NCBI GenBank assembly: GCA_900128565.1
Contig: LT635924.1
Coordinates: 1 to 49,078, forward strand
Reading direction: 5' to 3'
DNA length: 49,078 nt
Source: Stramenopiles sp. TOSAG23-6
Lineage: Eukaryota
A program made the translations under genes and the position numbers. Shown here in pieces: positions 1-49,078 of this stretch. Position 1 is the stretch's first letter, and the number at the start of each line of letters is the position of its first letter. Below the pieces are notes generated by a model. The model made no database searches, was not told where the DNA came from, and was given only the letters and a program-made list of their open reading frames with translations.

Positions 1-74
1 ATTTATTTATTTTTTCGTACGAAATTCCGTACCTAACAAATTTTACAAAAAAAAATATATTTTTCACAATACAT
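1..74 (+). other. Non-canonical intron family copy (5' truncated by window)
   Basis: Core cgtacgaaattccgtacctaac and 3' end ttttcacaatacat; the downstream exon resumes in phase 1. Confidence 0.8.
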
Positions 75-902
75 TGGAACCAAATCTTTTAGAAGGCTAT
101 GTGAAAGTCGAACCCACTCGTTTTCATGTACGTTTTCTTATTTATTTCAAAAATGTCTTTTTTTTTTTTCATACGAAATTTCGTACCTAACAAATTTAAA
201 AATATATATATATTTTTATAATACATGATATTTACGGGAAAGGTGGAAAAATCATTCGCTGCCTCCAGGACAAACTTAATGTTAAGATAGATGTTCCGAA
301 AGACACAAAAGGTATTTCATCTAATTTAGTATCTCATCGCGTTTCGATCGTTGGTGATAAGAGTGATGTAAAAAAAGCGAAGGAGACAATCAAAAATCTC
401 ATAAAGTTCCACTATATACGTTTTATATGAATTTCTAATTTATTTTTTTTCATACGAAATTTCGTACCTAACATTTTTTTTAGATTTTTTGAAATATTTT
501 TTCACAATACATACAGAAATTACTCACCCTGGATTTACACATTCCTTGGTTGAAGTTGAAGAGTCAAAATATAGTCTTATTATTGGCATACGAGGTCAGA
601 CAATCAAAAGTATCGAAGGAGATACCAGGGCAAAAATTCATGTACGTTTTCAAAATTGAATTTTTATCTACATTTTTTTTCGTACGAAAATTTGTACCTA
701 ACAAAAAAATATTGAATGTAAAATATTTTTCATAATACATATACCCGGAAAGAATCACTCTGGTACACAGGTGATGATTGTGGGCCTTCCTGCAAACGTT
801 GCTAAGGCAGAAAAACGAGTTAAAGCGATCATTGATGATACATATTCTAACCGTTCTGCTCTTGCTGAGGATGTTGAAGTTGTTAATGATGATGAAAAAT
901 AA
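75..902 (+). CDS. Multi-KH-domain RNA-binding protein (5' partial, spliced)
   Basis: Exons 75-127, 227-415, 513-641, 741-902 (TAA 900-902). The spliced product contains KH motifs RFH|DIYGKGGKIIRCLQDKLNVKIDVP and SLIIGIRGQTIKSIEGDTRAKIH|IPG. Not visible in the ORF track because of the introns. Confidence 0.85.
128..226 (+). other. Non-canonical intron GT-AT, 99 nt, phase 0
   Basis: cat|gtacgtttt...catacgaaatttcgtacctaac...taatacat|gat; removal gives RFH-DIYGKGG. Confidence 0.88.
416..512 (+). other. Non-canonical intron AT-AT, 97 nt, phase 0
   Basis: tat|atacgtttt...cacaatacat|aca; removal gives KFHY-TEITHPG in frame with the next KH domain. Confidence 0.82.
642..740 (+). other. Non-canonical intron GT-AT, 99 nt, phase 0
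   Basis: cat|gtacgtttt...cataatacat|ata; removal gives AKIH-IPG; contains an in-frame stop. Confidence 0.88.
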
Positions 903-938
903 TGAAGAATTTTGGGATGAGTCTGCTTTGATAAGGTA

Positions 939-995
939 TATTCTAGTTTTTGTCCATAATTAGGGTTAGGGTTATTCTAGTTTTTGTCCATAATT
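939..995. repeat. 23-bp direct repeat flanking a short TTAGGG tract
   Basis: tattctagtttttgtccataatt at 939-961 and 973-995; ttagggttagggtta at 960-974. Confidence 0.9.
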
Positions 996-1300
996 TTTCT
1001 AGTGAAAATGGATTCATGTTTTTATGTACCATGTAGCAATTTACCAATAAACAAATACGAATATTTTCTCCAATATTTTATTTTGATACAATTTTGATTT
1101 TTTTACATTTTTGTTGAGAAATTACGTACCGACAGACCTGCTTTTATTATAGGAATACGAATGTGTCTTTTGGCCAAAATTGTAGGCAAGTGCGCTGAAT
1201 CGATCTAGGATAGCTCTTCCGTCACACTTCGACTTTGGCTTCTTACAAAATACTACTTTAGTCGAAGTGTTTATGTTGTGATGTCAACATCCTAGAGAGC

Positions 1301-1951
1301 ATGGCAATGGAAAAGCAAACATCCAGGTTTAGGAGTAACGCATGTACACCAATTGCTCAGGGTGCTTTAGTTGGTGGTGTATTTGGTAGTGCTTGGGGTG
1401 GTATTTTAGGTACTCTACGAAATCAACCAGTAGGGTTTTACTCCACAGCAATGGGTTTTAATTTCTTTATTGCAAGTGGTATTTATTGTAGTGCATATCA
1501 ATGTATAAAGTCGATGCGAGGTGGAACGGATTCTCCATGGAATGCTGTTATTGCAGGGGTTTCAAGTGGTAGTTTGTTATCCGGTTTATTCGCTGGTCCT
1601 CGCAAAGTTCCTATTGGTGCTTTCATGTTTACAGTAGGAGGACTTGGGATTTTCTATACTCAGCAAATATATTACGACTGGAAAGAAAATGCTCGTAGAA
1701 TTATGATAAATGAAATAAACAATGAATATAGAAAGAAATCTCAAAAGGCTGTACCTAAAGAGTTCAAAGAACAGATTCAAGAGAGCTCACAAGAGAGCTG
1801 GATTCCAAACTGGTCTCCAATTCAAAAAGTAGATCATATAGAATACCGGAATAAGTTGAAGAAGAGATTGCTTGAAATAGATGCTGAGCTTGAAGGGAAA
1901 GTATATAGGGGTAGTAATGATGATGGTGATACTGATAATTCTTTGTATTAG
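1301..1951 (+). CDS. Tim17/Tim22/Tim23 (PRAT) family mitochondrial inner-membrane protein
   Basis: Gly-rich TM helices and an RGGTDSPWNAVIAGVSSGSLL PRAT-like motif; intronless 216 aa. Confidence 0.8.
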   Translation: MAMEKQTSRFRSNACTPIAQGALVGGVFGSAWGGILGTLRNQPVGFYSTAMGFNFFIASGIYCSAYQCIKSMRGGTDSPWNAVIAGVSSGSLLSGLFAGPRKVPIGAFMFTVGGLGIFYTQQIYYDWKENARRIMINEINNEYRKKSQKAVPKEFKEQIQESSQESWIPNWSPIQKVDHIEYRNKLKKRLLEIDAELEGKVYRGSNDDGDTDNSLY

Positions 1952-1991
1952 AATGTAATTCGCAATTTTATACAATATTAAATAATATATA

Positions 1992-4546
1992 CTAAACTTT
2001 GTTTTCCTCATGTAGCAAATTTTTGGTCAGAGCAGCAATCAGTGCTTCGTGGTGTGGTTGTCCGCTCCTTTTCTCAGAAGTATCTGTAGATTTCCCATAA
2101 AAATCACTATAATCAATAGATGAATCGATAGAGGAATCAATAGCATGATCACCGAGAGATTTTCGCTGCTGAACGATATGATACTCCCGCTCTTCTCTTA
2201 ACTCCTCCTCGGCTGCTCTCGCTCGATTTCGTGCTGCTTGTAATTCAGCCCTGCAAGATATTAATGTCTGCATCGCTTGTGACTCTTGTGAGGATTCATT
2301 CAAATGCAACTTAACTTTATCTTTCAATTCTTGTAGTTCTGCTTCTGTTGTGCGACATTTCTCTCTAGATTTCTGTAATTCTACTCGACTATGTTCAAGA
2401 GCCACCTCATGTATTGTGAAAAAAAAAAAAACTCAAAAAAGATTTGTTAGGTACAAAATTTCGTATGAAAAAAAATAAATTTGAAATTCATAATGAAAAC
2501 GTTCCAATTCTTCTATTCCAGGTGACTTTTTCTTTAATATTGTTTCTGCGAGATGTTTCTGTAATTCTACTAAATCATTATGTACTGCCTTCTTTTTCAT
2601 TTTTTCTGTCCCTAACAATACCAATGATTCATCGAGTTGGTCAGATAATGATGCTATTTTAATCTTGAAGACCTTTTTTTCAACTATATGCTGATCAATT
2701 TTGTCTTTAGCTAATCCATGCTGTTTTTTTATATGATTTACGTGCCTTTTTAATTTTCCATGTAATTTTTCTTTATCTTCTAATTCTTTCATTGTTTCTT
2801 TGTGAATTCCTGCAAGTTCTGAATGTTCACATTGTAATCGATTTACCGATTTTTCCATAATTTCTCTATAGACTTCATGTATTGTGAAAGAAAAGTACAC
2901 AATTTTTGTTATTAGGTACAAAATTTCGTACGAAAAAAAAATAAATTCGAAATTAAAAAAAAATAATGAAGACGTACATAGTCTGAAAGTTCTTTTTTCA
3001 CTCTTTGAAGTTCTAGATGCATCTTTTTTTGAGAAATTCGTTGTCTTTCGTGCTTGCTACTATTCATTTCTGTTAATGCAGCGCATTCTTTCCTTGAAGA
3101 TTTCAATTCTTCGGAACTTTTTTTTAATTGACGCCTTGACAATTCTAATTCTTCGGAACTTTTTTTTAATTCATTCAATATATTTGATATAAAACTAAGG
3201 GCTTCATCTCCGCCGTTAAGAATGATTTTTTTTGTGTCATCTGAAAGTTTAAGTCCTTCATTTTTCTCTTCACTAATCGATTGAACTTTCTCATTTACAT
3301 TTCGTAGAGTTCGAGGCTTTCTCGGATTTCGTGTTGTTGTTGTTGTTGTTGTTGTTATTTTCGCTGAAGAAAAAAAACGTGGGTTTCTACTTCGTGTTTT
3401 TTTTACCATACTATTTTGTTTTTTAATTTCATTCTTTAGATCTTTTCCAGATTTTTTTTTTACCACTATACTCTGCTGGTCAATTTCATTCTTTAGATCT
3501 TTTCTAGAAATTAAAGAATTCTTTGGTTGTTTCGTATTTCCTTGCTTAGTTGCAGCACGCATTCTTTGTGCAAATTTCAAACAGGTTAGATTTTCTGCAA
3601 TACAACTTTGTTGGTGTGAAAGAGCTGTTATAACACTACAATGAGCTTTACACAGAACAGCACCACGAAGTACCTTGGTTATAGTCGATTTATGATATGT
3701 GGTATTTACACCTCTCTCGTCTGTAGATAAAAATGCATCCAGTGTTAATTTCCATGGTGCTGTTTTATTTTTCCCACTATTATTTGAACTTTCAATCAAA
3801 TCACTTGACGCAGATGCAATGATTAAGGTTTGAAAAGTTGATGACAAAGGTTCAGTTTTGAGCTTGTCTTCTTCATCAGATTGTAGCGAAATAGTTAGTA
3901 GTAGATGATTAGATTTACTATGGATGGAGTCATTCGAATGATTCATCGTCGTTGTAAAATATTCCTGTATACTATTCATACTACGATGCAGCTCATCTGG
4001 GCTTCTAACAGTAACTCTTGTTTGCCCAGGAACAATAAAACTTGGTTTAGAAACATCCACACTTTCATTCAAGATCTGATTAGAAATGTCCTTTTCGTTA
4101 CTCCCTGCAGCATGTGCTAAAACATCAATAACTTTATCGTCGGATAAAAGGAGCCAGGAAAAGTGAAGAGTTGAGTGGCCTTTCTTGAACATCATATCTG
4201 TTGCTAAAACTGTCATTCCGTAGGCTAATTTGTCAACCGGATCGTTTGAATGCTTTGTACTTCGACCTGTAATAATTAAAAGTGCATTCTCCCCATCACA
4301 TACTTCACGCACCAACGGCATCACGCTTTTAGAGAATATATCAGTCAAGACTGTTCGATTTGTGTGACAAGAATCCATTTCAAAGCTGTACATACAGCTG
4401 AAATCTTCCTCTGGGCAGATTACAGTATTGCCTGAAAACTTCAGAACTGCGGGTAAAACTTTACCATCCACTTCTGTGTCAGAACTAAGTGGTTCACTAG
4501 TAAGAGCACATGCAGCAATATGTGAGACCTGTGCATTTTGTGCCAT
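1992..4546 (-). CDS. Divergent kinesin-like protein (degenerate motor domain plus coiled coil), spliced
   Basis: Exons 4546-2978, 2876-2505, 2408-1992. Kinesin-like segments DIFSKSVMPLVREVCDGENALLI, SKSNHLLLTI and YHKSTITKVLRGAVL..ENLTCLKFAQRM, followed by coiled coil. Confidence 0.7.
2409..2504 (-). other. Non-canonical intron GA-AT, 96 nt, phase 0
   Basis: Minus strand ttg|gaacgttttcat...catacgaaattttgtacctaac...cacaatacat|gag; contains an in-frame stop and joins the two coiled-coil ORFs. Confidence 0.75.
2877..2977 (-). other. Non-canonical intron GT-AT, 101 nt, phase 0
   Basis: Minus strand tat|gtacgtctt...cacaatacat|gaa; gives KELSDY-EVYREIME. Confidence 0.85.
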
Positions 4547-4905
4547 TTTTCAAAAGAAAATAATACCGACTTTCTGTTCACCTAAAAAGATCCGAAAGAT
4601 ACTACAATAACTGTCGGCTAAATTTAGCATTGATCGAAGAACATCTCTATCACACGAAATCTGGTTTTTTTTTTTTAAGGTTTTCGTGTATTTTCTTCGC
4701 ACTGGTGCTCTTGAGATCAGTTCATCAAACCGACAGGTAGTAGTACATCTCCACGCACTCTCCACTCTGTGAGGCAGTCTAGTGTATAAAAGTTTTCAAG
4801 CTGCGAATTCAGAGAGGGTAAACTTGTGATTTAGTATACTATTCAGTGAAAAGTCTGGGTATTATTTTCTTTCGTTTAAATTTGTAGTAGATTGTCCGTT
4901 GCAGA

Positions 4906-6486
4906 ATGTCGGAGAGACGTTATTTCTTAGTTGTAGACGCTGGTTCCAGTGGTTCACGAATCTTCGTGTATGAAAACGACAACACGAAAACCCTTCCCAG
5001 TGAGCGACTTCAGCTAATTAACGAAAAATATGGTCGATCTAAGACTGAGCCTGGTCTGTCTTCATTTTCAGAAAGCGGGGACTATGCTGGTGCTTGTACA
5101 TCTATCTCATATCTTCTGGACTATGCTGTAAGTGTTATCCCTGAAGAAATGCAAAAATCAACCCCGTTATTAATATTTGGTACCGCTGGATTACGCGTAG
5201 TGGATAAAAATAAGCGGAATGGTTTATTTGATTCACTTATTTCCTGTATATCTAGTAAATATGATTTTTTTGTGACCAGCGATAATGTTAGAGTCATAAG
5301 CGGGAATGAAGAGGCTGCTTTTGCGTGGATTGCTACCAATGCGAAGCAAAATCTTTTAGGTTCAAAGGAAGCTGCAACCATCGGTTCTTTAGATCTTGGT
5401 GGTGGATCGATGCAAATTGCGTTTCAACTGAAGCCATCTGACATTGTAGATGATAAACATATAACGGAAGTTTTCGGGAAAAAACTCTTTACTGCATCTT
5501 TCCTCGGGTATGGGGCGAATGCTGTAAGAAAAAGAGACATCAAAAATAGAATAGTTCCTCTAGCTAAAAACTTATTACTAAATAATTCGAATGGTCATGA
5601 GGTAGAAGTAATAGATCCGTGTCTAAATCCAGGTTATCTTGCTCGTTACAAATTGGTGGATGATAATAAAAATGCGATATTTATTGACGATAATTTTTTT
5701 CCACCCCACAAATTAAATCCTAACCCTAACCCTAATGGATCTACTGGTGATACGTTTGTTTTAGCTGGCACGGGTGATTGGGCTAAATGTCTCCTGGCAA
5801 TGGAACCATTATTGAATAAAAATGATTCGTGTAAAAACAAGAAAACATGTGGAATTAATAATACTAATATTCCTGATATCCGTTCGTATTCCAGTCCAAC
5901 CGGGCTCGGTAATACTTATAGAACGAAATGGTTTGCATTTTCTGAATATTATTATACTTTAGAAGATATATGGCATATTGGTAAATCCCCATATAACGCA
6001 AAGGATGTGAAAATATATTCCGAAGAATGGTGTGCAAAACAATGGTCCGAACTTTATGATAATTTTGATAAAAGTTATAAGAATAATATTTCACAAGATC
6101 GTCTTCACAACCAATGCTACAAGGCTGCTTGGATGGCATTAACATTGGAAGGTTTAAATTTTTGTCAATCAAATCCAACTAATCAGTCTTTATCTTTTAG
6201 ACAAATACAAGAAAATGGATTTCCCATTCATACTACAATGATACCTAACCACCCTGATGGGATTTCTTGGACGCTAGGCGCAGTTATAGATAAATTTCCA
6301 TCGGCAATGATAAATGAAGTGGTCGACTCTCAACAAACATTTTATGTCACAGTTATCTTCTGGTTATTAATGGTTGGTGGTCTCTTTGCTACTTTTATGG
6401 GCTTACTGAGGTTAAACAGGATTGGGAAAATTAAAATTTTTGGTAAAAAACTTAAATCATATAGTCGTTTAAGACTTTATTCTTGA
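4906..6486 (+). CDS. GDA1/CD39 family nucleoside phosphatase (apyrase/NTPDase) with C-terminal TM helix
   Basis: Apyrase conserved regions DAGSSGSR, GTAGLR, SGNEEAAFAW, DLGGGSMQ and ISWTLG; TM segment near the C-terminus. Confidence 0.93.
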   Translation: MSERRYFLVVDAGSSGSRIFVYENDNTKTLPSERLQLINEKYGRSKTEPGLSSFSESGDYAGACTSISYLLDYAVSVIPEEMQKSTPLLIFGTAGLRVVDKNKRNGLFDSLISCISSKYDFFVTSDNVRVISGNEEAAFAWIATNAKQNLLGSKEAATIGSLDLGGGSMQIAFQLKPSDIVDDKHITEVFGKKLFTASFLGYGANAVRKRDIKNRIVPLAKNLLLNNSNGHEVEVIDPCLNPGYLARYKLVDDNKNAIFIDDNFFPPHKLNPNPNPNGSTGDTFVLAGTGDWAKCLLAMEPLLNKNDSCKNKKTCGINNTNIPDIRSYSSPTGLGNTYRTKWFAFSEYYYTLEDIWHIGKSPYNAKDVKIYSEEWCAKQWSELYDNFDKSYKNNISQDRLHNQCYKAAWMALTLEGLNFCQSNPTNQSLSFRQIQENGFPIHTTMIPNHPDGISWTLGAVIDKFPSAMINEVVDSQQTFYVTVIFWLLMVGGLFATFMGLLRLNRIGKIKIFGKKLKSYSRLRLYS

Positions 6487-6534
6487 AGAAATAAAAACAA
6501 ATAAAACGTTTAAACATTTTAGGCTGAAGAAACA

Positions 6535-6612
6535 AAAAAAACAAAATTGGTCCTTTTCCTTCGGGTAAATATTAAAAAAACAAATTGGTCCTTTTCCTTC
6601 GGGTAAATATTA
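6535..6612. repeat. Tandem duplication, 38-bp period, 2 copies
   Basis: aaattggtccttttccttcgggtaaatatta starts at 6544 and 6582, between convergent gene ends. Confidence 0.9.
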
Positions 6613-7071
6613 ATCATGGTCTGCATTTTCCCTTCTGTTTCTTTCGGTCTGCTTCTTGTAGAATTTGATATCTTTTTCTAACCACGACTCATCGTCAAAG
6701 TCAGACAACTCGTCAAAATCAGACAACTCGTCAACATCAGACAATTCGTCAACATCAGATTCGCGGTTCGTATGGGAAGGAGGTAGAAATTTATTTAACC
6801 TATACAAGCTGTCCACATACACATTTGTTTCTTCTTTCATTTCAAATCCATTAAAAAGTACATCTCTTGGTTTTAGGATGCTTTCCCGAGTCACTGTAAG
6901 CCTGCCATAAGGGAAACGCTTTTTGTTATAGGCGATTGTTTTAAAAAACTTACGTTGGCGCATCGCTGGTAAGTTTTGAAGATGGCGTATACGTCGAAGA
7001 CCTGTAGTACATCCTTGAATTTGGACTATTTGTATTCCCAAAAACAACAACAACAACAACAACGGGGGCAT
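6610..7071 (-). CDS. Small putative secreted protein of unknown function
   Basis: Signal-peptide-like MPPLLLLLLFLGIQIVQIQG, basic middle region, 4x SD(V/F)DEL-like acidic repeat. Confidence 0.55.
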   Translation of the reverse strand: MPPLLLLLLFLGIQIVQIQGCTTGLRRIRHLQNLPAMRQRKFFKTIAYNKKRFPYGRLTVTRESILKPRDVLFNGFEMKEETNVYVDSLYRLNKFLPPSHTNRESDVDELSDVDELSDFDELSDFDDESWLEKDIKFYKKQTERNRRENADHD

Positions 7072-7286
7072 TTAAGTGACTTGGAGTGTTGCTTATCTAT
7101 CTAAAGAGGTAGCTACGATGCTTTAGTAGTATTACTATACTAGAAAGGTACGCTATATTTGAAGTGAGTCCAAAGCCTCCGAGGTCAACAAACAAACTGA
7201 CTCGCAAAAATCGAAATAAATTTTGCAATACTATACGTCCTCTCAGCTCACCTTATCATGCCACTACTATAGTAAGCTAGAGAATC

Positions 7287-9704
7287 ATGATTCCCACTTC
7301 GTTTGTGTGCATGTCATGTGATGGTTCGGGGAAACGTCGTGGTAATTTGACAAAGAATGCACGGCGTATGTTACGTGCAGCAAAAATCTGGGGCAAACCA
7401 AAACCTAATGTAGAGTCTATGAGACTTGTTGTTAAGTGCAAAAGCTGTGATGGTTCGGGTCTCATTTCTGATATTACAGGTACAAGTTTGTCAAAGGAAG
7501 CGTGTGGTGCAGCACGTGATCGCGATGACTTCGTTGTTGGTGTTGCGGGTGGAGGTATCGGTGGTCTTGCTGTTGCTTTGGCTTTACAGCAGCGTGGTAT
7601 TCGTGTCATCGTATATGAAAGAGACGTTTCCTTCAATGAACGTAGTCAAGGCTATGGTCTTACGATGCAGCAAGGCGGTGCTGCGTTAGAGGCATTAGGA
7701 ATACGTTTTGAAGAAGAAAGTATATCATCTTCTGCGCATTATTCATTTAAACCTTCCGGTGAAGTTATCGGTTGTTATGGTCGTCGGCTTCGAGCTGCAG
7801 CACAAAGAGGCAGTTCAAACGAAAGTGTTGATGATGTCAGTGAAAAAGAGACAATTACTATGAGTAAAAATACACCAAAGCAGAATATGTATCATTTACT
7901 CAGGGACCCTCTCTTGAAAGTATCTATAGCAAAGAAAACGGATGAAAATCGCGGACTAAAAAGATTTCGATCGGCGGAGAAATCGACAAATACATCTGAA
8001 AAACGTGGTAATACTTGTAATACTAGTAGTAATAATAATAATAGTAATAATAATAGTATACCAATAGAAACTGAACAAAAGAAATCTAAAAAAAAGAAAA
8101 ATATAACATTCGATTCTCAGCCTCAAAAAACGAAAACTGAAAAATGTAAAAGTAGAAATAAAAACACGAAAACTGAAAAATGTAAAAGTAGAAATAAAAA
8201 CCGACATATTCCTCGACAACGACTTAGACAACTTTTATATGAAAGATTATTACCAGGTACTGTGCAATGGGGCTGCCGAGTAGTAGAATATAATGATAAT
8301 AGAATGAATAAAGTTGAACTTTCACTGTATAAGAAACAAAAGCACAAAAGTGTTGACAATGAGAAGAGCACTCAGCAAATTCGAAATTCGTTAGGTACGA
8401 AATTTGGTACGGATTCGAATCGGCCAACCAAAGAGACGATGTTTCAGCAAACAGTTTCTGTATTAGTAGGTGCTGATGGGATATTTTCAACCGTGAGAAA
8501 AGTAAAATTAGGTGATGATAAACAAAGCTTGCGTTATTTAAACGTCATGGTTATACTCGGTATTGTAGGTTTTTATTATGAATTTTGATTTTTTTTTTTT
8601 CGTAAAAAATTTTGTCCCTAACAAATTTCAAATTTTTAAAAATATTTCCTCAAAATAAATGCTCCTTGTGATTACCCAGGATATAATGAAACTGTATGTC
8701 AGACATTAGATGGTGACACGCGATTATACTCCATGCCTTTTACTAGCCCTATCCAAGAGTCTGGTGTTTATCATAATAGAAATTCATCAAATGATAATTT
8801 AAATGAAACAAAAAATTCTAATATTCCAAATGTTGTCAATTCAGCAGTTGCAGCAGTTGGACATGGTACAACTATGTGGCAGCTTTCTTTTCGAGCGACT
8901 GAAAATGAAGCAAAACAAATTGTATGTTTTATTTTTTTTTTTTGTATGAATTTTTTTTTCGTACGCAATTTTGTACCTAACAATTTTTTAAATTTTTTAA
9001 AAATATTTTTCCAAAATACTTGCTTCAACACCAAAAACTTTGAAAAGTGAAGCACTTCGTCGATGTTCGACTTGGCATGAACCGATCCCTCAGCTTTTGC
9101 AAGATACTGATTTCGAATTAGTTACTGGATATCCTTGCTTTGATAGACACCTACTTTCTGCTGAACGATGCAGAGGAGATTCTAATTCCAGGGTTACTTT
9201 TTTAGGTGACGCTGCTCATGTATCTTTTATTTTTTTTTTACAAAAAAATCGAATTTATTTTTCGTACGAAGTTTTGTACCTAACAAATTTTAGTTTTTTT
9301 TTTTGAAATATTTTTCCAAAATACATCCGATGTCACCTTTCAAAGGTCAGGGTGCAAATCAAGCGTTGCTTGATGCTGTCCTCCTCGCTCAACATTTATA
9401 TACATCAAATATAGCTACAAATGTTCGAAAAGAAAACGAGAAAATAGCGAATTCTTTGAGAAAAGCTGACAAAGTTAGAGGTTCCACAAAATATGAAATT
9501 CCTGATAGAACTGTAATTGATGCTATGGCTGCATATGAACGAATAATGTTAGATCGAAGTTCTATAAAGGTGAAGCAATCAGCTGAGGCAGCAAAAGTTT
9601 TACATATGAAGGAAGCGACAGCTGCTGTTGGGGGACAAACACGGGCAGCTGTGGCAATAGCTGCAATTCAAGGTCAGAATTTACAAACTCTGAATCATTC
9701 TTAA
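7287..9704 (+). CDS. FAD-dependent monooxygenase (group A flavoprotein hydroxylase type) with N-terminal CxxCxGxG pair, spliced
   Basis: Exons 7287-8564, 8661-8921, 9022-9219, 9327-9704. Motifs GGGIGG, LVGADGIFSTVR and, after splicing, LGDAAH|PMSPFKGQGANQALLDA. Confidence 0.9.
8565..8660 (+). other. Non-canonical intron GT-AT, 96 nt, phase 0
   Basis: att|gtaggttttt...tttgtccctaac...caaaataaat|gct; gives VILGI-APCDY in frame with ORF 8733. Confidence 0.82.
8922..9021 (+). other. Non-canonical intron GT-TT, 100 nt, phase 0
   Basis: att|gtatgtttt...ccaaaatactt|gct; gives EAKQI-ASTPKTLKSEALRRC. Confidence 0.85.
9220..9326 (+). other. Non-canonical intron GT-AT, 107 nt, phase 0
   Basis: cat|gtatctttt...ccaaaatacat|ccg; restores GDAAH-PMSP. 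Confidence 0.92.
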
Positions 9705-9767
9705 TATTAATACATTTATAAAAGAAATTGTACTATAGATTTCTTAATTTTGTTTATAGATAATCAT

Positions 9768-31012: not shown

Positions 31013-31285
31013 TTTCCTACTAAAATATGTCAAAATTTTGATTTTGTTTTGTTACGTACAAAATTTTCTACCAAAAAAAAAAAATGTAGATGAAAATGAA
31101 GTGATGGCTAGCTAAATAGAGTTCTAGTATAGATTTCCTACTATAATTAAATACAATTTAACCAATACAAATCTAATTTATAACACAATAGTGAATTAAT
31201 ATAAAATAATAATTTAAATTTCTCACATCATTTGAAAATCAATTTACTACAAAATTCCATACCTAACAAATTTCAAAAGTCTTTA

Positions 31286-38180: not shown

Positions 38181-38324
38181 GAATTGTTTTTTTTTGGCGA
38201 AATAAACGCCTTCAAAAATGCATTTAACCGTCGAAAAAATGTCTTCTTCTGGTTGGAATACAGGTACTATTTTGGAGCCTATATTAGATTATAACATGTT
38301 TATTGCCGTGTAAACCTCAGGAAA

Positions 38325-39017: not shown

Positions 39018-39403
39018 ATCCTACCCCTAACCCTTTATGAGAAACTATAAAAATATATAAAACTACAGTGATTTATTATAGAAAAATATATAGAACGAAA
39101 GTGATGTATTACGATTTAGATATGGAGATTTTAAAGTTTTGCTTTTTTCTTTTCTTTTCTTTTTTGATTCGGTAAATAAACAAATTTCAAAATCAAACAA
39201 GATCATATCGTAGTACTAGGTAGGTAGGGTACCGGGTCCAAAAAAGTTCAACACTATTTTTGCTACCAAACGTAAAGTATTTTCATTAGGTACGAAATTC
39301 CGTATACAAATTTGACTTCAGAGATTCAGCCCAAAATGATGTGATCCACTTCTTCTCTACTATCGCACGCTTTTATCGTAGTAGAAATAGTATTTACTTT
39401 GCG

Positions 39404-40819: not shown

Positions 40820-40852
40820 ATTTGTTTTTAATCCCATAATAAAAAATATGTA

Positions 40853-43800
40853 GGAAGTCGTCCCCCCTATACCGGCCACTTTTGATTTTGTACGAAAATC
40901 AGTACCTAAGCAAAACTGAACAAAAAATGTACGTTTCCTATTCCGGCCGGTACTATGATAAGATCGAAAAGATACTTTTTTTCTAAGACTACGTAGGTAA
41001 GTATATAAGTGTTCCTATGAATAAAAGAGTATTTATTAAATTAATCTTAACATCTTGTTCTTTTGTATCACCCACTATTGTACCAACTTCACGTTAAAAA
41101 TTTCTACGCTTCGCTATCGTTGTCGCTTTCACTCTCAGACTCGCTTTCGGATTCGGATTCGCCTTCGCCTTCAGATTCATCATCCGTTTCGCTATTGGAA
41201 CTTTCACTATCAGATATTTCTCTATTAGAACTCTCGCGATCTCGTGCAGGCTCGTCGAAACAACTCTCGCAACAAACCCATCTACTGGATTTGCTTTCAT
41301 ATCTTGGTATTTGTAAGTCAATGTTTACGCCACAGCAGTTGCAAATGCAAACATCTCCAGACAACTCTCCAGACTCCGTAAAAATAAGCTCCTCCTCACT
41401 AAATTCATGACGACGCAATGCTTTATGTTTTTGTAATTCATCATATGTATAATCGGTAGATCGATCTTGGGTGCTTGCCCACCTAATTGTGTATTTTTCA
41501 TTTTCATAACTAACTACTGTTGCTTCTAACCAATCACCTTTCCAAAGAGCCAATACTGATTTGTGATTCATAAACCATTCATGATTTTCTTTTTTCTTTG
41601 CTTGTCTTGCTTTTTCTGCTTTGCTCATTTTTTTCTTTACGACGTATTGTTTTTTATTTCTAGAATTATACTCATCTAGAAAAAGCTGCTTAAGTTTCTT
41701 CGAATCAAATTGAATTGGTTTGTTTGAGCCATTTTCTTCCGACACAGAAATCTTCCATGAGAGAAGAATTGCTTTATAATCATTTTTGTATAGTGTTTCA
41801 TTTGATTCCATTTTGCTAATTGCACTATCAAGTATTTCTTTTTCTCTTGCTTTTTTTTGTTGAACTCTTTTTTCTTGTGCTTCTTTCTCTTTCTTTTTTT
41901 TCTCTTCTCTTTCTACAACTGCAGCAACAACATATTTACATTTATACTTAGCCTCATATTGCTCCTCAAATACTGCCTCTATTTTTGTTTTAGCAATCTT
42001 TGAGAGTTTTTTTCCATCTATATTATCTATTCCCCAACTCTCAAGAATTGCACGATGTTTGTTTACAGTAAGACTCTTTTTAGCATTCATGTCTTCAACA
42101 GCTTCCTCACGTAGTTTCATTTTTTTACGGATTAATTCCTGATCTTTAATAACTTTATCTTTTTTCTTTTGCTCTTTATCTTTTTTCTTGTCATCTCTAT
42201 TCTTTTGGACAGCTTTAACTTGTTCTAATTGTTCCGCAAGTGAAAAATCTGCACCATGAGAAGTATTGACACCTACTCTTTTTCTTTTATTTTTTTTTCT
42301 TTTTTGTTCTTCGGCATTTGCGCGTCTTGTTGGTTCAAACATCCCAGTCTCCAGAGATTCATATACTATACTTCTAATAACAACATCTCTTTCAAGAGGA
42401 ACTTTATATATCAAAACTTTGTCTGCATTTTCAGGTTTATTCCGTGGTGATACGCGAAGAGGTTTTGCTATATCTAAGTCTTTCGGAGCTTCTTCGAGGT
42501 AACTAAACATATCGATAGCCGTTTGCCAACTGGAATTATAACGGTCAACCGGATAAACACCGCACCTTTCAAACGCTCTTGTGACAATATTACCAACTTT
42601 AACTTCTTCAAAACCAAGTATATTGTTTTCCATGTACATATCATACCCATTTTTTTTAATTCGTGAGTCAATTAATTCTTTCTTTAGCCTTTCTGTAACT
42701 GTCATCCATGAACGACTGATAATTTTGTTATAGTCCGAGATCGAATACTTATTTGTATAGTTTAATTTCTTCCAATCATCAACTAACACTGAATATGCTG
42801 CACGGAGCATAGAATTGATCCCAACATCATTTGGTTGAGACCAAGATGATGTATGCGACGCAAGACAAAAGGGAAATACGTTATTATCCCGCAGTGTCTT
42901 CATTGCTGCCATTGACCACCGAGAAGCATGCCCATCAAAAGTCAAGATGACAGGTTTTCCATTCTTTCCGTATCCTTCTGGCAGTCCTTTGACAAACCAC
43001 TCACAATAACGCTTAAAAATTTCAATAGTCATAGAACCACTTGTAGAAACTTCCACTCTCCAGCCATTTGTCGAAATATCCGAATTAGGGTCACCTTTCC
43101 AAATAGGTTCGTCTAGTTCAAAGCCTGATAAGTGGTTTTGGTTTCTTTTTGGATTAGTTACACCAGGAGATGCGTGAATCACCATTGATGGTAAAATTGC
43201 TCCATCAGCCCTTGAAGTAACTACACATGTAGCATGGAATTCCGGATGATCTGAACCAAGTTTCGATCTCTTTCTTTTCTTTTTCCCTCCTCTATTAGGA
43301 ACATGAGCTTTACCAACAACTTTATTCCGCTTTCCATCTTCTTTTCCTCCAAACTCATCCATGTTGTAAATTTGTTTTGAAAAATCATTAACATCAAATT
43401 TTCCAGGAAACTCTTCTCCTAACCTCTTTACCAAACTTTCCAACTTCGAAAACACGGCATCTCTGACTTTGGTATTGGCCTTTTTTGCTCGTTCAAAGCT
43501 CAGAACTGCAGTTTTGTACTGTTTTAACTTCGGGTGACGCTTCAAGAATCCATGAACAAATGACCGTGTGCAGCCTTTCTCATACCCTAGCCTTGTAACA
43601 ATATGACTGGCAAAAGAGGTGATTTGTTCAATAGTCATTCCTAGACCAAATCCATCCATTTGTATTATAATTTGTTCCAACCACAATTCTTCATCATCAG
43701 TGAAATACCGCTTGAAATTTGGGTTTCCTGTTGATTTCAGTTCAAATTCCTCATTAATCAGACGAGTCATTCTTTTCTTGGTTTGTTTACCAATTTTTTT

Positions 43801-44664
43801 TCCGTATTTTGAGCGGGGTTTCCCAAAAAAACGTTCGAAATTATCAGATAATGTAGAATGTGGTATTCCATACTTCTTTGCGCAAGTATTCCGACCTGAT
43901 CCGTCTACCCATTCTTTCAAGGCATCCTTCATCCTTCTGAGACCTCGACCATCTTCTTTCCATTTCAATTTTTTTTTCTTTACAGTACGCTCCTCACGCT
44001 CCGCCGCAATCACCCGCTTGCGCTTCTTTGACTTCGCAGCTCTTAGAATGCGTTTGGGCAGACTGAAATTGATCTCCTTCAGTTTCCCACTAGTATAAGT
44101 GGGAGTGGTCTGAAGAAGATCTTTTTCAATCGGAGACGACAAAGACGAAGCTTCTTGTCGCTCTTTTTCTTCCTCCAATAAACGATTTCTGGAAGCCAGC
44201 CTCTCTTTATCAGCTTCCAACTGTGCAATTTTGAGGAGCAACGCCTCTTTATTAACATCATCTTCATTACTTTTGTGCGCAAGTGTTGACAACATGGTAT
44301 TTTTGAGCTTGAGAGTGAAGAAAGCATAACTTTGTGAACGAGTGGTTCAGAATCCAACTTCAAATTGAGTGGTTCTGATTCAATGGTATGTAATGTTTCC
44401 CGCGCTTTTTTTTTTATGCCTACAAGCCAATACATATTTGATAATCTTTATGGAGAATATTGTGAATGGGCATACAATGCTTCAAGCAGTATTACTGCTA
44501 AAAGCATACTAACGTTACGCGAATGTTCACATGTATGGTATCTTTTTAGTATCTTTACGTTATTGGTACGAATTTTCAGGCTTAACGGTCGATGTTAACC
44601 CTAACCCTAATCGTGGCCGGAACGGCCGGAATAGGATTCGGCCGGAATAGTAAAGAGTACTTCC
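40853..44664 (-). mobile_element. pogo/Fot1-like (Tc1/mariner superfamily, DD35D) DNA transposon, apparently intact
   Basis: TA at 40851-40852 and 44665-44666; imperfect TIR GGAAGT-N8-CTAT(A/T)CCGGCC at both ends; extra CTATTCCGGCC subterminal copies (40938-40948; 44615-44650); uninterrupted transposase ORF; inserted 33 bp after the DnaJ stop. Confidence 0.9.
41104..44295 (-). CDS. DDE_1 (pogo/CENP-B type) transposase with Tudor-like and Cys-finger C-terminal extension
   Basis: HTH AKKYGIPHSTL, CENP-B-type HTH (FVHGFLKRHPKL), catalytic YNMDE, TFDGHASR and QPND with 35 residues between the last two Asp. Confidence 0.92.
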   Translation of the reverse strand: MLSTLAHKSNEDDVNKEALLLKIAQLEADKERLASRNRLLEEEKERQEASSLSSPIEKDLLQTTPTYTSGKLKEINFSLPKRILRAAKSKKRKRVIAAEREERTVKKKKLKWKEDGRGLRRMKDALKEWVDGSGRNTCAKKYGIPHSTLSDNFERFFGKPRSKYGKKIGKQTKKRMTRLINEEFELKSTGNPNFKRYFTDDEELWLEQIIIQMDGFGLGMTIEQITSFASHIVTRLGYEKGCTRSFVHGFLKRHPKLKQYKTAVLSFERAKKANTKVRDAVFSKLESLVKRLGEEFPGKFDVNDFSKQIYNMDEFGGKEDGKRNKVVGKAHVPNRGGKKKRKRSKLGSDHPEFHATCVVTSRADGAILPSMVIHASPGVTNPKRNQNHLSGFELDEPIWKGDPNSDISTNGWRVEVSTSGSMTIEIFKRYCEWFVKGLPEGYGKNGKPVILTFDGHASRWSMAAMKTLRDNNVFPFCLASHTSSWSQPNDVGINSMLRAAYSVLVDDWKKLNYTNKYSISDYNKIISRSWMTVTERLKKELIDSRIKKNGYDMYMENNILGFEEVKVGNIVTRAFERCGVYPVDRYNSSWQTAIDMFSYLEEAPKDLDIAKPLRVSPRNKPENADKVLIYKVPLERDVVIRSIVYESLETGMFEPTRRANAEEQKRKKNKRKRVGVNTSHGADFSLAEQLEQVKAVQKNRDDKKKDKEQKKKDKVIKDQELIRKKMKLREEAVEDMNAKKSLTVNKHRAILESWGIDNIDGKKLSKIAKTKIEAVFEEQYEAKYKCKYVVAAVVEREEKKKKEKEAQEKRVQQKKAREKEILDSAISKMESNETLYKNDYKAILLSWKISVSEENGSNKPIQFDSKKLKQLFLDEYNSRNKKQYVVKKKMSKAEKARQAKKKENHEWFMNHKSVLALWKGDWLEATVVSYENEKYTIRWASTQDRSTDYTYDELQKHKALRRHEFSEEELIFTESGELSGDVCICNCCGVNIDLQIPRYESKSSRWVCCESCFDEPARDRESSNREISDSESSNSETDDESEGEGESESESESESESDNDSEA

Positions 44665-44690
44665 TAGTAAAGTTGTAATGCCTTTTTTTT

Positions 44691-44812
44691 TTTTTTGTTA
44701 CATTTCTCATTTGTATACATTCTATAGAATTTTTTAGATGTTTGTTTTAGATTTTTTTGTTACATTTCTCATTTGTATAAATTCTATAGATTTTTTTTGA
44801 TGTTTGTTTTAG
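44691..44812. repeat. Tandem duplication, 62-bp period, 2 copies
   Basis: gttacatttctcatttgtata.attctataga..ttttt.gatgtttgttttag starts at 44697 and 44759. Confidence 0.9.
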
Positions 44813-45098
44813 CTTTTATGATCTATTAGATCTCAGATCGGTATTGCATCGATCATCGGGTCTCTCGTTTTACTTTTTTTTTGACTGTTCTTTTTGATTG
44901 ATTGAAATCGAATTAATTGGCCGTGTGCGTGAAACTTTGGATTCTTTGAGATCAGCTAGATCAGCTCTCGACAATATTAAAATATTTTGAGTCTTTTACA
45001 TTATTCAATAAAGATATTTTTCTAGCATACTGCTCACAAAGTGACTAAGGGTTACTGAATTTCATTCACTTTATGAGTTCTCAGTGTGTTTAAAAGTC

Positions 45099-48084
45099 AT
45101 GACAGATAATATGTTACAAGATTGGGGTCAATTTACAAACGTAGTACGTGATACGGAAAAGCCTAGTTTAGGCCAGGTAAGTAAAGAGCCTTCGAATCAT
45201 AGTTCATTAAACGAAACCCAAAAGCAACATTCTATCATAGAACCATTTAAGGATGCTAATTCTACAACTTCTACTATAAATGATCGCAAAGACGATACAC
45301 AAATTAGATCTTTTTCTAACTCAAATTTGTTGACCACTACCCCCTCTTGCCCTAGTTTAAAAAATCTCAGTAGTGTTGCTGAATCAAACGTATCAACTCT
45401 TTTATCACATAATACTTCAGTAAATACCAATGATCTTCAAAAGAATCGAATAAATGGAGATTCATCATCAAATTTGGGTGTATCCAAAGTCCATCCATCT
45501 TGTCCAGATATGAAGGCACTTGCTCAAAATAGGGTAAGTCAGTCACGACAGACCCGAATACACCTCAGTGAAGCAAAAGCTGCATTATTTAGACACTCAC
45601 TCACCGGGGTCTTAGTAAAACGAGGTTTCGGAGGATTTAAGCGATGGGTACCAAGATATGTGACTTTGCGAGGGCGTATGCTCTCCTATTACACATTGAA
45701 AGATTCCAAAAAATGTGATATTGTTCGTTTTCATCATGAAATTTCGATTGTTTTTTTTACCTACGTTTTTTTTCGTAGACAATTTTGTACTTAATCATTT
45801 TTTTACTAAAATTTTTTTTTCACAATACTTGATTCTGTACACGCCAGAGGAGTTTTGGAACTTACAAAACATACAGTTATTAAAGCTGTACACTTCGATA
45901 CAAATGTATGTTTTATTTTTTTTTTTTCAAAAAAATCGAATTTTTTTTCGTACGAAATTTTGTACCTAACGAGTTTTTTTTTGAAATATTTTTCTAAAAT
46001 CCATATCGCTAATAGTCAATTTGGTATAAAGATTATTCCTATCAAAGAAAATACTTTAAATAATGATTTATATGACACTCAAACTCCAGGAGGCATAGAA
46101 CCGAATTTTTGTACTCAAAATAAAAATTCATTTGGTTGGTGGCGTGATAGAGCTTCATCAGCCCAATGTCCTCTACAGTTTGTTGATGAGTCCTTCAAAA
46201 ATAGTAATAATATGACGGATAACTCCAAAATAATAAAGCAAAGAAACAAAAGTATGCCTCCTCCGACTCGATCAGTCATCTCTAGTAAAAAGTTGTGGAT
46301 GTACATTTTCATTATTTATTAAAATTTGATGTTTTTTTTTGTACCAAAATTTGTACCTAACTAAAAAAAAATTTGAAATTGTTTTTCATCATTTATTTCA
46401 AATGTATTTGTTTTTTCTTTTTTTACGTAAAATATTTTTGTACCCAACGAATATTAAATATATATTTCAATCTATATGTGTATTTTTTCACAATATATGC
46501 TCATTGCAAGATCTGCCGACGAGCAGAATCGATGGTTAGAAAATCTTGCAAAAGTAATCCAATTGATATCACGTGTTGAAGAACCTGCAACACTTCGTGG
46601 CATGGGTACAGTCTATGATCATTTTTTTGTTGGTGAAATTTTAGGTCGTGGAAGATTTGGAATTGTTAGAGAATGTATACATAAAACAACAAATAAATTA
46701 TACGCATTAAAAATGGTTAATAAAACGAAAGCGTTCACCGCTGAAGGATTAGCTGCTCGAAGAACACTTCACAATGAATTAGCTGTTTTGAAACGATTAA
46801 AACTCGTCCTCGGACCTCATCCAGCTATATGTAATACATTTGAAGTATATAATGATAAATTTATTACTTATATTGTACTTGAGCATTTAGGTGGAGGTGA
46901 TTTATTTGATAGATTAGTTCAATTAGGAAAATATACAGAAGCAAATGCATCCACTTTGACGCGACAGTTACTCACAGGATTACAAGAATTACATCGTCGA
47001 AATATTATTCATCGCGATGTCAAGCCAGAAAATATTTTATTTTCATCAAAAGATAAAAACAAATTAGACGTAAAATTAGCTGATTTTGGTTGTGCCTTGA
47101 TTCTGAAACGGAACCCTAATGTACGTTTTTTATTTTTATCATGATTTTTTTTTACAAAGAAAATTTAAAATTTTTGTACTTATGAAAATTTTGTTGTACT
47201 ACAAAAAATATTTTCCCAAAATACATGCAAGTCAAAGACGGACTCAAAAGTTTCTGGATCGAACAATCGTAGGGACACCTGGTTATATCGCTCCAGAAGT
47301 GATACTGAAGTGTGAATATACTCCAAAATGCGATGTGTGGGCTGCAGGAGTGATATTATATATAATGCTTGTAGGCTATGTACGTTTTATTTTTTTTTTT
47401 AGTATGAATTTTTTTTTCATACGAAAGTTTGTACCTAACGATTTTTTTTTGAAATATTTTTCCAAAATACATCCTCCTTTTTATGGTAAAAATGAATGGG
47501 AAATATTTGAAAGAACAAAGCGTGGTTGCCTTAAATTTGATAATTCTGATTGGAAAGGTATATCTAAAAATGCTGTTGATCTCGTACGAGGAATGTTATG
47601 TGTCAATCCAGAGATTCGTTTGTCAACAAAACAGATTCTACGACATAATTGGATTATAGAGCCACCTTCTTCAAAACTTTTACCAGACACTCTTTCGCGA
47701 TTAACGAATTTGAATACACGAAGAAAAGCAAAAGAAAAGATGAGAAAATCAATGGAAATCGTCCCAAATACAATGAATACAAAAAATACAAAAAATACAA
47801 AAAATACAAAAAATCAAGAATCAGTAAAACATCAAAACTATGAAAATTGTACAAAATTGAATGAAATCGAAAGAAAGCAAGAGGAAGTGAGTAAAGAAAA
47901 TTTTGAAATTTCGAATACTCGAATGGATCAAACCAAACGACTAACACCAAAAGATATACGCCATGTAGATCAAAAATGTGACACAGTAAAACCATCAAAA
48001 AAAGCAACACCTGGCAGTTTGAATTTTACAGACAAGGAAATTGCAGAAATTAGAAGTAAAGTGAAATTTCGATCTATGGGATGA
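45099..48084 (+). CDS. PH-domain CAMK-family Ser/Thr protein kinase, spliced
   Basis: Exons 45099-45722, 45831-45905, 46005-46300, 46499-47120, 47227-47379, 47473-48084. PH motifs GVLVKRG..KRWVPRYVTL and ARSADEQNRWL; kinase motifs GRGRFG, HRDVKPEN, DFG, GTPGYIAPE and LVGY|PPFYG. Confidence 0.9.
45723..45830 (+). other. Non-canonical intron GT-TT, 108 nt, phase 0
   Basis: att|gttcgtttt...ttttgtacttaat...cacaatactt|gat; gives KCDI-DSVHARGVLEL within the PH domain. Confidence 0.82.
45906..46004 (+). other. Non-canonical intron GT-AT, 99 nt, phase 0, in frame with no stop
   Basis: aat|gtatgtttt...cgtacgaaattttgtacctaac...ctaaaatccat|atc. Confidence 0.82.
46301..46498 (+). other. Compound non-canonical intron (two tandem family units), 198 nt, phase 2
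   Basis: at|gtacatttt..ttgtacctaac..caaat gtatttg..ttgtacccaac..cacaatatat|g; gives KKLWM-LIARSADEQNRW. Confidence 0.75.
47121..47226 (+). other. Non-canonical intron GT-AT, 106 nt, phase 0 (degenerate core)
   Basis: aat|gtacgttttt...cccaaaatacat|gca; joins the DFG and APE parts of the activation segment. Confidence 0.87.
47380..47472 (+). other. Non-canonical intron GT-AT, 93 nt, phase 0, in frame with no stop
   Basis: tat|gtacgtttt...ccaaaatacat|cct; restores the CAMK motif LVGY-PPFY. Confidence 0.92.
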
Positions 48085-48152
48085 AAACATAATAAAATAG
48101 TTCAGAAATCAAAAAAAATCAAAAAAAAAGAAAGATGAGAATAAAATCAATT

Positions 48153-49026
48153 TTAGAGATCAATTTTTTGAACGCTTTCAATTGCTCTTTTCCTCCAGCG
48201 TTTCACTAAATATGACGTCAGACACGAGTTCTGTTGACTCAAATTATCTATATTTCGTGTATCACTATTTTGATCAATTATTGGTAATAAAGGTAAAATA
48301 GAGGGTTTGGTCATAATTTTCCTATATTTTTCATCATTCATTGTATCAACTTCATGTAGAATTCTAGATAACAAATTATGTGATAAGCGACCATCAGGTG
48401 CAGCCTTATCAATTGCATAAAGTGCTTGTATAAGTTGGGTCAAAGCAGCGGTTACATTTCCAAATATAGAACTTTTTTCATCAACATCGGATAATAATTT
48501 TCGAACAGCTGGAATAAATATTGTAGTGTGAGTTTCTGTCAATAAAGATACTTTTTTATCCTTTTCTATTTCCTTTAGCACTCTTTGTTGATTGATCGAA
48601 AATGGATCTTCTGTTACATGTATTTTGGAAAAATATTTCAAAAATTAAAATCGTTAGGTACAACATTTCGTACGAAACCGAAAAAAAAATTCATAGTAAA
48701 AAAAAAATTAAAACACACATCATTACTTTTTGTACTCGATCTTAATTTTAAGCCAATACCATCGTGACGTATAGAAAAAAAAGAATGTAAATGGCTAGAG
48801 GAATCATTTTCATTTTCATTTGAAATTTCATTTACATTTTCATTCAAATTTTCATTTTTATTCAATCTTGAACTGTTTGATGAGTCTTCTTCTATTTCAT
48901 TAATTTTGTTTGTTTCAAATTTCTGTTGTATATTTGTTGATGTTTTCGTACTTTCAAATAAATTCTTATTTCGTGCATCAGGATAAACTTTGTGCAGAGC
49001 TGATCGTTTCGCTAATCCACCACCAC
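48153..49026 (-). CDS. Hypothetical protein, 3' part (5' end outside window), spliced
   Basis: Exons 49026-48719 and 48617-48153 join in frame after removing a family intron; no recognisable domain. Confidence 0.6.
48618..48718 (-). other. Non-canonical intron GT-AT, 101 nt, phase 0
   Basis: Minus strand gat|gtgtgtttt...cgtacgaaatgttgtacctaac...ccaaaatacat|gta. Confidence 0.8.
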
Positions 49027-49078
49027 ATGTATTGTAAAAAAAATTAAATTCGAAATTTGTTAGGTACAAAATTTCGTA
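49027..49078 (-). other. Non-canonical intron family copy (truncated by window)
   Basis: Minus strand tacgaaattttgtacctaac...tttacaatacat|gt, phase 1. Confidence 0.78.

Follow-up and report, generated by a model that had tools for sequence, protein, structure and literature searches.

The stretch of DNA analyzed in this work (positions 1 to 49,078 of the forward strand of contig LT635924.1, GenBank assembly GCA_900128565.1, from Stramenopiles sp. TOSAG23-6; hereafter, the window) harbors a family of 22 related intron-like units of about 90–108 nt, which are distributed over seven genes, lie in sense to the host gene in 22/22 cases, and whose excision restores the host coding sequences at ends that are never AG. 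The number and the placement of these units had been proposed from the letters alone (hereafter, the sequence-only reading), and motif and profile scans confirmed it in full. Twenty units are complete and two are cut by the window ends; since two of the complete ones (U15 and U16) form a head-to-tail pair, the twenty correspond to 19 introns. We suggest that the units are probably a high-copy Introner of the transposon type, which brings along a 5' splice site and a branch site and obtains its 3' end from a duplication. The best reading of the family is thus that of a variant of Introners, which are themselves an established kind of element.

A single family of intron-like units

The units were located by scanning the window with GTACCTAAC and with an nhmmer profile made from 16 of them. 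The profile gave 21 matches at E<=1e-5 together with diverged copies that scored less well, and the matches lying outside the 16-unit training set include U1, U19, Ux, U15, U16, and Uy. When TTYGTACCTAAC was searched with up to two mismatches, 34 matches were found versus 6.7 expected (the largest value in a shuffled sequence being 13), and the scan with the 3' motif gave 8 matches versus 0.36 expected. The median pairwise identity of the units is 71% (range 57–93%, 19 sequences), and the blocks conserved in their alignment correspond to the 5' splice site, to the branch site, and to the 3' terminus.

The units open with GTAYGTTTT, that is, with a yeast-like 5' splice site (GTAYGT) starting from the very first base and followed by a variable T-rich stretch. 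Within the unit, a small palindrome (GTACGAAATTTYGTAC) or palindrome-like block (CGTACGAAATTTYGTAC) leads into the branch box TACCTAAC; 10–25 variable bases separate this box from the unit's 3' end, which is composed of (GA)AATATTTTTYCAMAATAC plus two nucleotides and is recognizable by the 3' motif ATATTTTTYCAMAATAC. The branch A is located 34–46 nt before the unit end. At least two subfamilies can be recognized among the units, GTACGTTTTCATTATGAATTTC...CACAATACAT and GTATGTTTTATTTTTTT...CCAAAATACAT. Reading the introns from the GT, the termini of the 19 complete ones are GT-AT in 14 cases, GT-TT in two, and GT-AA, AT-AT, and GA-AT in one case each, a distribution that reproduces exactly the one given by the sequence-only reading; an AG ending occurs in 0/19.

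Precise excision at the unit ends restores the host genes

Excision at the unit ends leaves the host frame open in 19/19 complete introns (16 in phase 0, one in phase 1, and two in phase 2), and generates single frames of 786 amino acids (aa) for a kinesin, 706 aa for a FAD-dependent oxidoreductase, 6682 aa for a HECT/SPRY ligase, and 793 aa for a protein with a PH and a kinase domain. The 6682-aa frame agrees with the earlier claim that three open reading frames (ORFs) are fused into one HECT gene.

The position of the cuts can be checked inside conserved domains. In the gene encoding the PH-kinase protein, the removal of U17 (47380–47472, plus strand, 93 nt, GT-AT) joins LVGY|PPFY; the spliced kinase (...IMLVGY|PPFYGKNEW...) aligns without gaps both to Cryptosporidium CDPK1 and to an environmental homologue with 51% identity, and the Pfam kinase profile is contiguous over the junction (positions 193/194 | 195/196). 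Two units fall within KH domains, namely U2 (128–226, plus strand, 99 nt, cat|GTACG..ATACAT|g, phase 0), which interrupts the first one so that position 14 of the KH_1 profile starts the next exon, and U4 (642–740, plus strand, 99 nt, GT-AT), which interrupts the second; the profile is contiguous over both junctions (13|14 and 34|35). In the FAD-enzyme gene, the excision of U9 (9220–9326, plus strand, 107 nt, GT-AT) joins GDAAH|PMSPFKGQG, a junction read directly from the sequence that presumably matches the flavin monooxygenase motif GD(A)AH...P..GQG. The contiguous frames, the profiles, and the gapless kinase alignment are all in agreement with the earlier claim that precise removal restores GDAAH-PMSP, LVGY-PPFY, and the two KH domains.

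The use of nearby GT-AG junctions in place of the unit ends, which the sequence-only reading had indicated as a possible objection, is not supported by the reading frames. If the family donor is combined with the first AG downstream of the unit, the frame is kept in 4/19 cases, chance (one in three) predicting 6.3, and an AG located 4–15 nt past the branch site is present in 4/20 units, where its use would break the frame. Every unit does have GY..AG pairs in its vicinity that keep the frame, but these delete exon codons; hence, a rescue by nearby GT-AG sites was rejected. On the basis of the first AG being in frame in so few introns and of the frame-breaking internal AGs, the requirement for a non-AG end is robust as far as the coding sequence is concerned.

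As for the unit-free genes of the window, those checked are near full length when compared with the corresponding profiles (Ras 1–160/162, GDA1 6–416/423, DnaJ, and Tim17). Since the Ras, DnaJ, Tim17, and GDA1 genes look complete without introns, no further intron is required in the 49 kb, and all the needed ones belong to the unit family, which upholds the earlier statement that no GT-AG intron is needed anywhere in the window.

Border repeats and the origin of the 3' end

A feature that is absent from the sequence-only reading is the repetition of a dinucleotide at the unit borders. The dinucleotide preceding the unit is identical to its last one in 17/21 units (including one from a metagenome locus, L001, described below), 15 being AT/AT and two TT/TT, and a permutation test on this match gave a mean of 13.1 versus the 17 observed (P=0.003). 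Both TT-ending units, U8 (8922–9021, plus strand, 100 nt, att|GTATG..ATACTT|g) and Ux (45723–45830, plus strand, 108 nt, att|GTTCG..ATACTT|g, in the PH-kinase gene), have TT upstream even though they belong to different subfamilies. Moreover, the unit termini are short inverted repeats (GTAY...RTAC), and in an AT-flanked unit exon positions -2/-1 plus intron positions +1 to +4 are reverse-complementary to the last 6 nt. The whole border pattern looks like a 2-bp target-site duplication beside short terminal inverted repeats; these marks are short, and the evidence they provide is modest.

Other signs of a mobile element are a tandem pair, a copy in decay outside the genes, and isolated pieces of the unit core. 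The pair is formed by U15 (46301–46403) and U16 (46404–46498), which lie head to tail on the plus strand and are removed jointly (46301–46498, phase 2), as would be expected if a further copy had been inserted into the AT adjoining one already present. The decayed copy (31022–31086, minus strand, nhmmer E 2e-5) is located between two genes, has lost its 5' splice site, and ends with ..TATTTTAG. A core fragment of 35 nt (8378–8412, minus strand, nhmmer E 3.1e-6) is embedded in antisense in the first exon of the FAD-enzyme gene, an exon that is still open, and is apparently translated; since the bulk-DNA contigs break at this point, the fragment behaves as a repeat. Further isolated core fragments were retrieved by the profile scan at 39278–39305 and 40879–40910.

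Based on these features, we propose that a short, non-autonomous mobile element may create an intron wherever it is inserted in sense within a gene. Insertion would duplicate two target bp, usually AT and sometimes TT, and the message would be restored by the removal of the element together with one copy of the duplication, so that the excised piece would be GT...AC plus AT, or AT plus GT...AC, and would never end in AG. The major spliceosome would carry out the first step using GTAYGT and the branch site TACCTAAC, after which the exons would be ligated at the end of the element and not at the first AG, the non-AG site being set locally by the ...TTTTTYCAMAATAC terminus; a short helix with the 5' site might aid ligation at this end. 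Both the conservation of GTAYGT and TACCTAAC and the sense placement of all the units, which speaks for a strand-specific process at the RNA level, favor such a transposon-type Introner. If the odd acceptor is most simply a duplication carried along with the element, then a specially evolved acceptor signal becomes unnecessary. Accordingly, the earlier idea of an AG-independent splicing system populated by one mobile family can be retained for what concerns the single, mobile-looking family and the required non-AG ends, whereas a specially evolved acceptor is not demanded, and AG-independent splicing of the RNA, together with its extension to the whole lineage, is an inference.

The same spliceosomal introner might have been spread by a different route, that is, by reverse splicing and reverse transcription after an AT, in which case the border AT would represent a site preference and not a duplication. 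This possibility, which we consider unlikely although worth weighing, would account for the lack of antisense intragenic copies (with the exception of the 35-nt core fragment), for the strong prevalence of phase 0 (16/19 introns), and for the very short inverted termini; in addition, the window contains no autonomous element with the unit termini, the inverted repeats of the pogo-like element described below being different, and fungal introner-like elements are interpreted in this way in passages of a previous paper (PMC9860276). However, both TT-ending units, in spite of their different subfamilies, are preceded by TT, as a duplication predicts; decayed and fragmentary copies exist outside coding sequences; and a sense-only survival is also expected from selection acting after random DNA insertion.

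Since the dinucleotide preceding the unit equals the last one, the borders can slide by 2 nt and, therefore, GT...AT and AT...AC introns yield the same mRNA. Hence, the true cuts might lie 2 nt to the left, so that most units would be AT...AC introns with A(+1)/C(-1) replacing G/G, removed by the major or the minor spliceosome. Such a spelling can be adopted for 15/19 complete introns, in which AT precedes GT, the ATAC is borne by the element itself, and AT-AC is listed as an accepted terminal pair in the passages available of PMC12130899. Nevertheless, we regard this reading as very doubtful. The U12-type introns, to which it leads, share with the units the possible AT...AC ends, but the ATATCC box is missing from the units, whose 5' end reads (AT)GTAYGTTTT. 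In U12-type introns, /RTATCCTT is the box at the 5' end and the branch site, TCCTTAAC, is near the 3' end, at about 10–26 nt from it, whereas in the units the distance is 34–46 nt and the branch box is closer to TACTAAC than to TCCTTAAC. Furthermore, under the shifted cuts the 5' dinucleotide becomes variable (AT, TT, TG, GT, GC) and GTAYGT falls out of register. Genes for U11, U12, and U6atac are absent from the window, an absence that is uninformative for the whole genome.

The pairing of the ends might also suggest that the units are cut from RNA by a non-spliceosomal or mixed pathway, similarly to the nonconventional introns of euglenids and diplonemids, with the sites brought together by the pairing of AU|GUAU with AUACAU and the ends made slidable by short direct repeats, a hypothesis to which we assign a rather low probability. 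It is in agreement with the direct border repeats (17/21 units) and with the pairing of the last 6 nt with exon -2/-1 plus intron +1 to +4, which has a median of 5 contiguous pairs in 20 units. UH2 (20257–20350, minus strand, 94 nt, phase 1), a diverged unit of the HECT gene with ends GTTCG..CGAACAT, has undergone one 5' and three 3' changes that result in a perfect end helix of 7 nt; all three 3' changes add pairs with the altered 5' end, and this only clear compensatory-looking case can be taken as an anecdote in favor of end pairing. For Euglena, parts of two papers (PMC12501133, PMC12621601) report introns with slidable borders that have direct repeats as well as inverted ends, and the passages available on euglenid and hemistasiid diplonemid introns describe the same slidable borders with short direct repeats and pairable ends. 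On the other hand, according to the same passages, those introns are devoid of both GT and a branch motif and exhibit CAG/CTG or G/C-rich ends with extensive pairing, whereas GTAYGT and TACCTAAC are what the units conserve most. The end helix of the units is of 4–7 bp only (end pairing ranging from 0 to 7 nt overall), contiguous pairing starting from exon -2 is lacking in 5/20 units, and the RNAalifold consensus contains 0 pairs.

Units in public DNA and RNA reads

The region 1–10000 is represented almost fully in two small DNA records of 2015, largely in seawater metagenomes of 2024, and partly in marine metatranscriptomes. Read depth was taken over positions 1–20000 in the 2024 bulk seawater DNA (X3), in one library of polyA RNA (X8), and in two metatranscriptome libraries labelled 'other' (X6/X7). 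In X3, the depth is about 8.5 in the single-copy parts and reaches thousands at the unit cores, with up to 85,617 at position 2468, which places the unit family in seawater DNA roughly 10^3–10^4-fold over its single-copy flanks. This excess corresponds in order of magnitude to the density of the units in the window (22 units/49 kb), provided that the genome is of tens of Mb. An independent X3 contig (8387–8950) crosses the whole of U7 (8565–8660, plus strand, 96 nt, att|GTAGG..ATAAAT|g, in the FAD-enzyme gene), and others stop inside U4, U9, and U10 (13869–13960, minus strand, 92 nt, GT-AT, in the HECT gene); the units are, therefore, present in bulk DNA at these loci.

These data bear on the possibility that the units are excised from DNA, like the internal eliminated sequences (IESs) of ciliates, the assembly then being a germline-like version. 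The TA-bounded IESs are indeed short, AT-rich segments with a direct repeat of which one copy is retained, and the units resemble them in length, in composition, in the 2-nt direct repeat, in the inverted ends, and in the single repeat copy left after removal. However, DNA excision does not need a sense orientation, found here in 22/22 units, the repeat is AT/TT and not TA, and ORFs reach 3252 aa under the standard genetic code. Moreover, besides the contig crossing U7 and those ending in other units, DNA depth at the units is far over that of the flanks, and a skip of about 100 nt in DNA is absent among the joints listed (15 of 234). Thus, DNA-level excision, the second objection raised by the sequence-only reading, is not borne out either, and we consider it extremely improbable.

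Removal at the RNA level, as the Introner model implies, would be in agreement with the polyA data. The X8 depth at position 2468 is 24.6 versus about 1–3 in the exons, two to three orders of magnitude below the ratio in DNA; since depths sum all organisms and all copies, this depletion lends weak support to such a removal.

Several observations weigh against the model of a transposon-type Introner spliced at its own non-AG end. The same summing of organisms and copies within each sample makes all the depth ratios rough. In X6/X7 the units are enriched as they are in DNA (18,311 at position 2468 versus about 1–3 in the flanks), an excess that could be due to DNA carry-over, to stable excised introns, or to unspliced RNA. 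Some polyA contigs run from the 3' end of a unit into foreign exons, with loose ends at 9326 (5 records) and 9327 (2). An exon–exon joint of about 100 nt is missing among the joints listed (15 of 234), all of which are repeat-driven, and the joint and loose-end tables are uninformative on absence because they are swamped by cross-copy repeats. A search of the protein database with the read-through kinase ORF, aimed at transcript-derived peptides with a 31-aa gap, gave a best match of 44% identity and retrieved no entry of this organism and no near-identical peptide. The border repeat is lacking in 4/21 units, and the argument for a duplication relies on two TT/TT loci plus the permutation test. 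RNAalifold, run on 19 units, revealed no consensus structure. Finally, we know of little direct precedent, outside Fritillaria, for a spliceosome bypassing a near AG in favor of a distant AT.

For what concerns the distribution of the family, a scan of the JGI metagenomes with a 20-nt core motif retrieved one locus, L001, with a single typical unit (cat|GTATG...ATACAT|g) placed in sense in a gene. The IMG/VR scan with a 17-nt core gave six loci, all chance matches, and no full unit by nhmmer. In the literature searched, no paper joining 'GT-AT' with 'introner' was found, and text passages of the papers on the single amplified genomes do not mention non-canonical introns, although their supplements may contain intron tables.

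Relationship with known intron systems

The units share several features with the Introners of Micromonas, Aureococcus, Chrysochromulina, Symbiodinium, and others, that is, many near-identical short introns in unrelated genes, duplications and/or inverted termini, and a message unchanged by removal, in hosts that are often marine and with compact genomes. In the window, the copies lie in unrelated genes, the frame is restored in 19/19 introns, and transposon marks are present, even though they are short and empty sites are lacking. In one Introner class, described in part of PMC9860276, the 5' splice site belongs to the element and the duplication supplies the 3' one. What distinguishes the units from the described families, which are GY-AG, is a duplication of 2 bp (AT/TT) and an AG end in 0/19 introns. 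According to passages of PMC12130899, annotated GY-AG introns were the starting point for the published families, and families with unfamiliar ends were retained only if supported by RNA.

Among the systems with non-canonical introns, the tunicate Fritillaria borealis has introns of which 95% are not GT/AG, with 3'AC and 3'AT among their ends, and which are handled by a U2-type machinery with a diverged U2AF, as stated in the passages available of PMC13326754. This organism is an animal, the 5' ends are also non-GT, and its introns are diverse, whereas the units represent one homogeneous family with a canonical GTAYGT and a strong branch site. A transposon origin was reportedly proposed for the Fritillaria introns by Henriet in 2019, and U2AF is duplicated in this animal. 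Amoebophrya is, like the organism studied here, a marine protist with repeated non-canonical introns. The latter have direct repeats of 3–5 nt overlapping the borders, inverted repeats of 8–20 nt, unconserved terminal dinucleotides, and no clear splice signature, as far as the passages of PMC7789003 describe them, whereas in the units the inverted ends are of 4–6 nt, the repeat is of 2 nt, and both the 5' site and the branch site are canonical.

Group II and group III introns are characterized by domain V/VI, by a 5' GUGYG, and by a 3' AY. The termini of the units (GUAYG...AU) loosely resemble these ones; neither an Rfam match nor a conserved structure was found, and the host genes (HECT, PH-kinase, kinesin) are typical of the eukaryotic nuclear type. 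Overall, the units differ from all the systems compared, in part through text passages, in combining canonical 5' and branch sites, a 3' end of non-AG type apparently derived from a duplication, and the homogeneity of a single family.

A broader reading, which we advance tentatively and with more doubt than confidence, is that essentially the whole intron complement of this genome (about 10^3–10^4 introns) consists of one Introner family, and that the major spliceosome ligates exons at a non-AG site, formed by the element terminus plus the 2-bp duplication, bypassing nearer AGs. If this were true, the reading of AG by U2AF35 and the second-step G/G contact would be relaxed or replaced genome-wide in a free-living marine protist, with the 5' site and the branch site otherwise canonical. 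Few signals of eukaryotic genes are as constant as the AG with which introns end, and here the choice of the 3' end is isolated as the sole odd variable. If RNA confirmed the removal of the units, they would represent a clean system to understand how, in the absence of AG, the site of the second catalytic step is located, and would indicate that a transposon can force its host to tolerate non-AG acceptors. It would also follow that standard gene callers and Introner surveys assuming or preferring GY-AG mis-annotate most multi-exon genes of such plankton and miss families of this type. The unit family can be tested directly with existing metatranscriptomes.

Gene content and other features of the window

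The window is AT-rich (G+C 30–40%) and gene-dense, with intergenic gaps of roughly 30–400 nt. The genome appears very compact, convergent genes being separated by 40–70 nt (1951/1992, 9704/9768, 48084/48153). The seven host genes encode a KH-domain protein, a kinesin, a FAD-dependent oxidoreductase, a HECT/SPRY ligase, a small coiled-coil protein, a PH-kinase protein, and one unnamed product; the 6682-aa HECT/SPRY protein is encoded by a single gene of 20 kb. Rfam and tRNA scans of the window gave no match.

The remaining units are located as follows. On the plus strand, U1 (1–74) is cut by the window start and ends with CACAATACAT (nhmmer 7–74, E 5.9e-10), and U3 (416–512, 97 nt, tat|ATACG..ATACAT|a) is the one with AT-AT termini. 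The kinesin gene embeds, on the minus strand, U5 (2409–2504, 96 nt, ttg|GAACG..ATACAT|g), with GA-AT termini, and U6 (2877–2977, 101 nt, GT-AT). Unit U11 (26508–26597, 90 nt, GT-AT) belongs to the HECT gene, and unit U12 (31412–31510, 99 nt, agc|GTACT..ATACAA|a) is the GT-AA case, both being on the minus strand. Flanked by a stop codon on one side and by an ATG on the other, U13 (31707–31804, minus strand, 98 nt, GT-AT) might be a 5'-UTR (untranslated region) intron or an intergenic copy. At this place (31805–31834, minus strand), the unit follows the stop of a 244-aa ORF by 27 nt and abuts the ATG of the next ORF, which is of 129 aa and coiled-coil; either it is a 5'-UTR intron in a tiny intergenic space or both ORFs are on one transcript. 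Further along the window, U14 (45906–46004, 99 nt, GT-AT, ..ATCCAT) and Uy (47121–47226, 106 nt, aat|GTACG..ATACAT|g) are on the plus strand; the latter is diverged (nhmmer E 0.18, with a full-length alignment) and falls in the region of the kinase activation loop. Lastly, U18 (48618–48718, 101 nt, gat|GTGTG..ATACAT|g) and U19 (49027–49078), which is cut by the window end and ends with ACAATACAT|g, are on the minus strand.

The window also contains an apparently intact DNA transposon of the pogo/Tc1-mariner type (40853–44664), with a 1080-aa ORF (41104–44346, minus strand) harboring a DDE_1 domain, 27-nt terminal inverted repeats (74% complementary), TA on both flanks, and repeated CCGGCCGGAATAGG subterminal motifs. 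It was considered as an autonomous partner of the units and rejected, since its inverted repeats (GGAAGT...) and its TA duplication differ from theirs. Its two ends (40879–40940 and 44567–44590) embed the core-like motifs GTACGAAAATCAGTACCTAAG and GTACGAATTTTCAGGCTTAAC in direct orientation, the one at the left end being followed by ATGTACGTTTCC, which resembles the 5' end of a unit. On the strand opposite to the transposase ORF, positions 44387–44548 (plus strand) show a canonical-looking intron of 160 nt (GTATGT ... CATACTAAC ... TTTTTAG); this arrangement may be due to chance, since, by a rough estimate, about 10 TACTAAC are expected in the window from its composition. Telomere-like repeats (CCCTAA/TTAGGG, two units) are present within one end of the transposon (44596–44612), and similar inverted blocks adjoin the unit-bearing gene at about positions 2290–2345 of L001.

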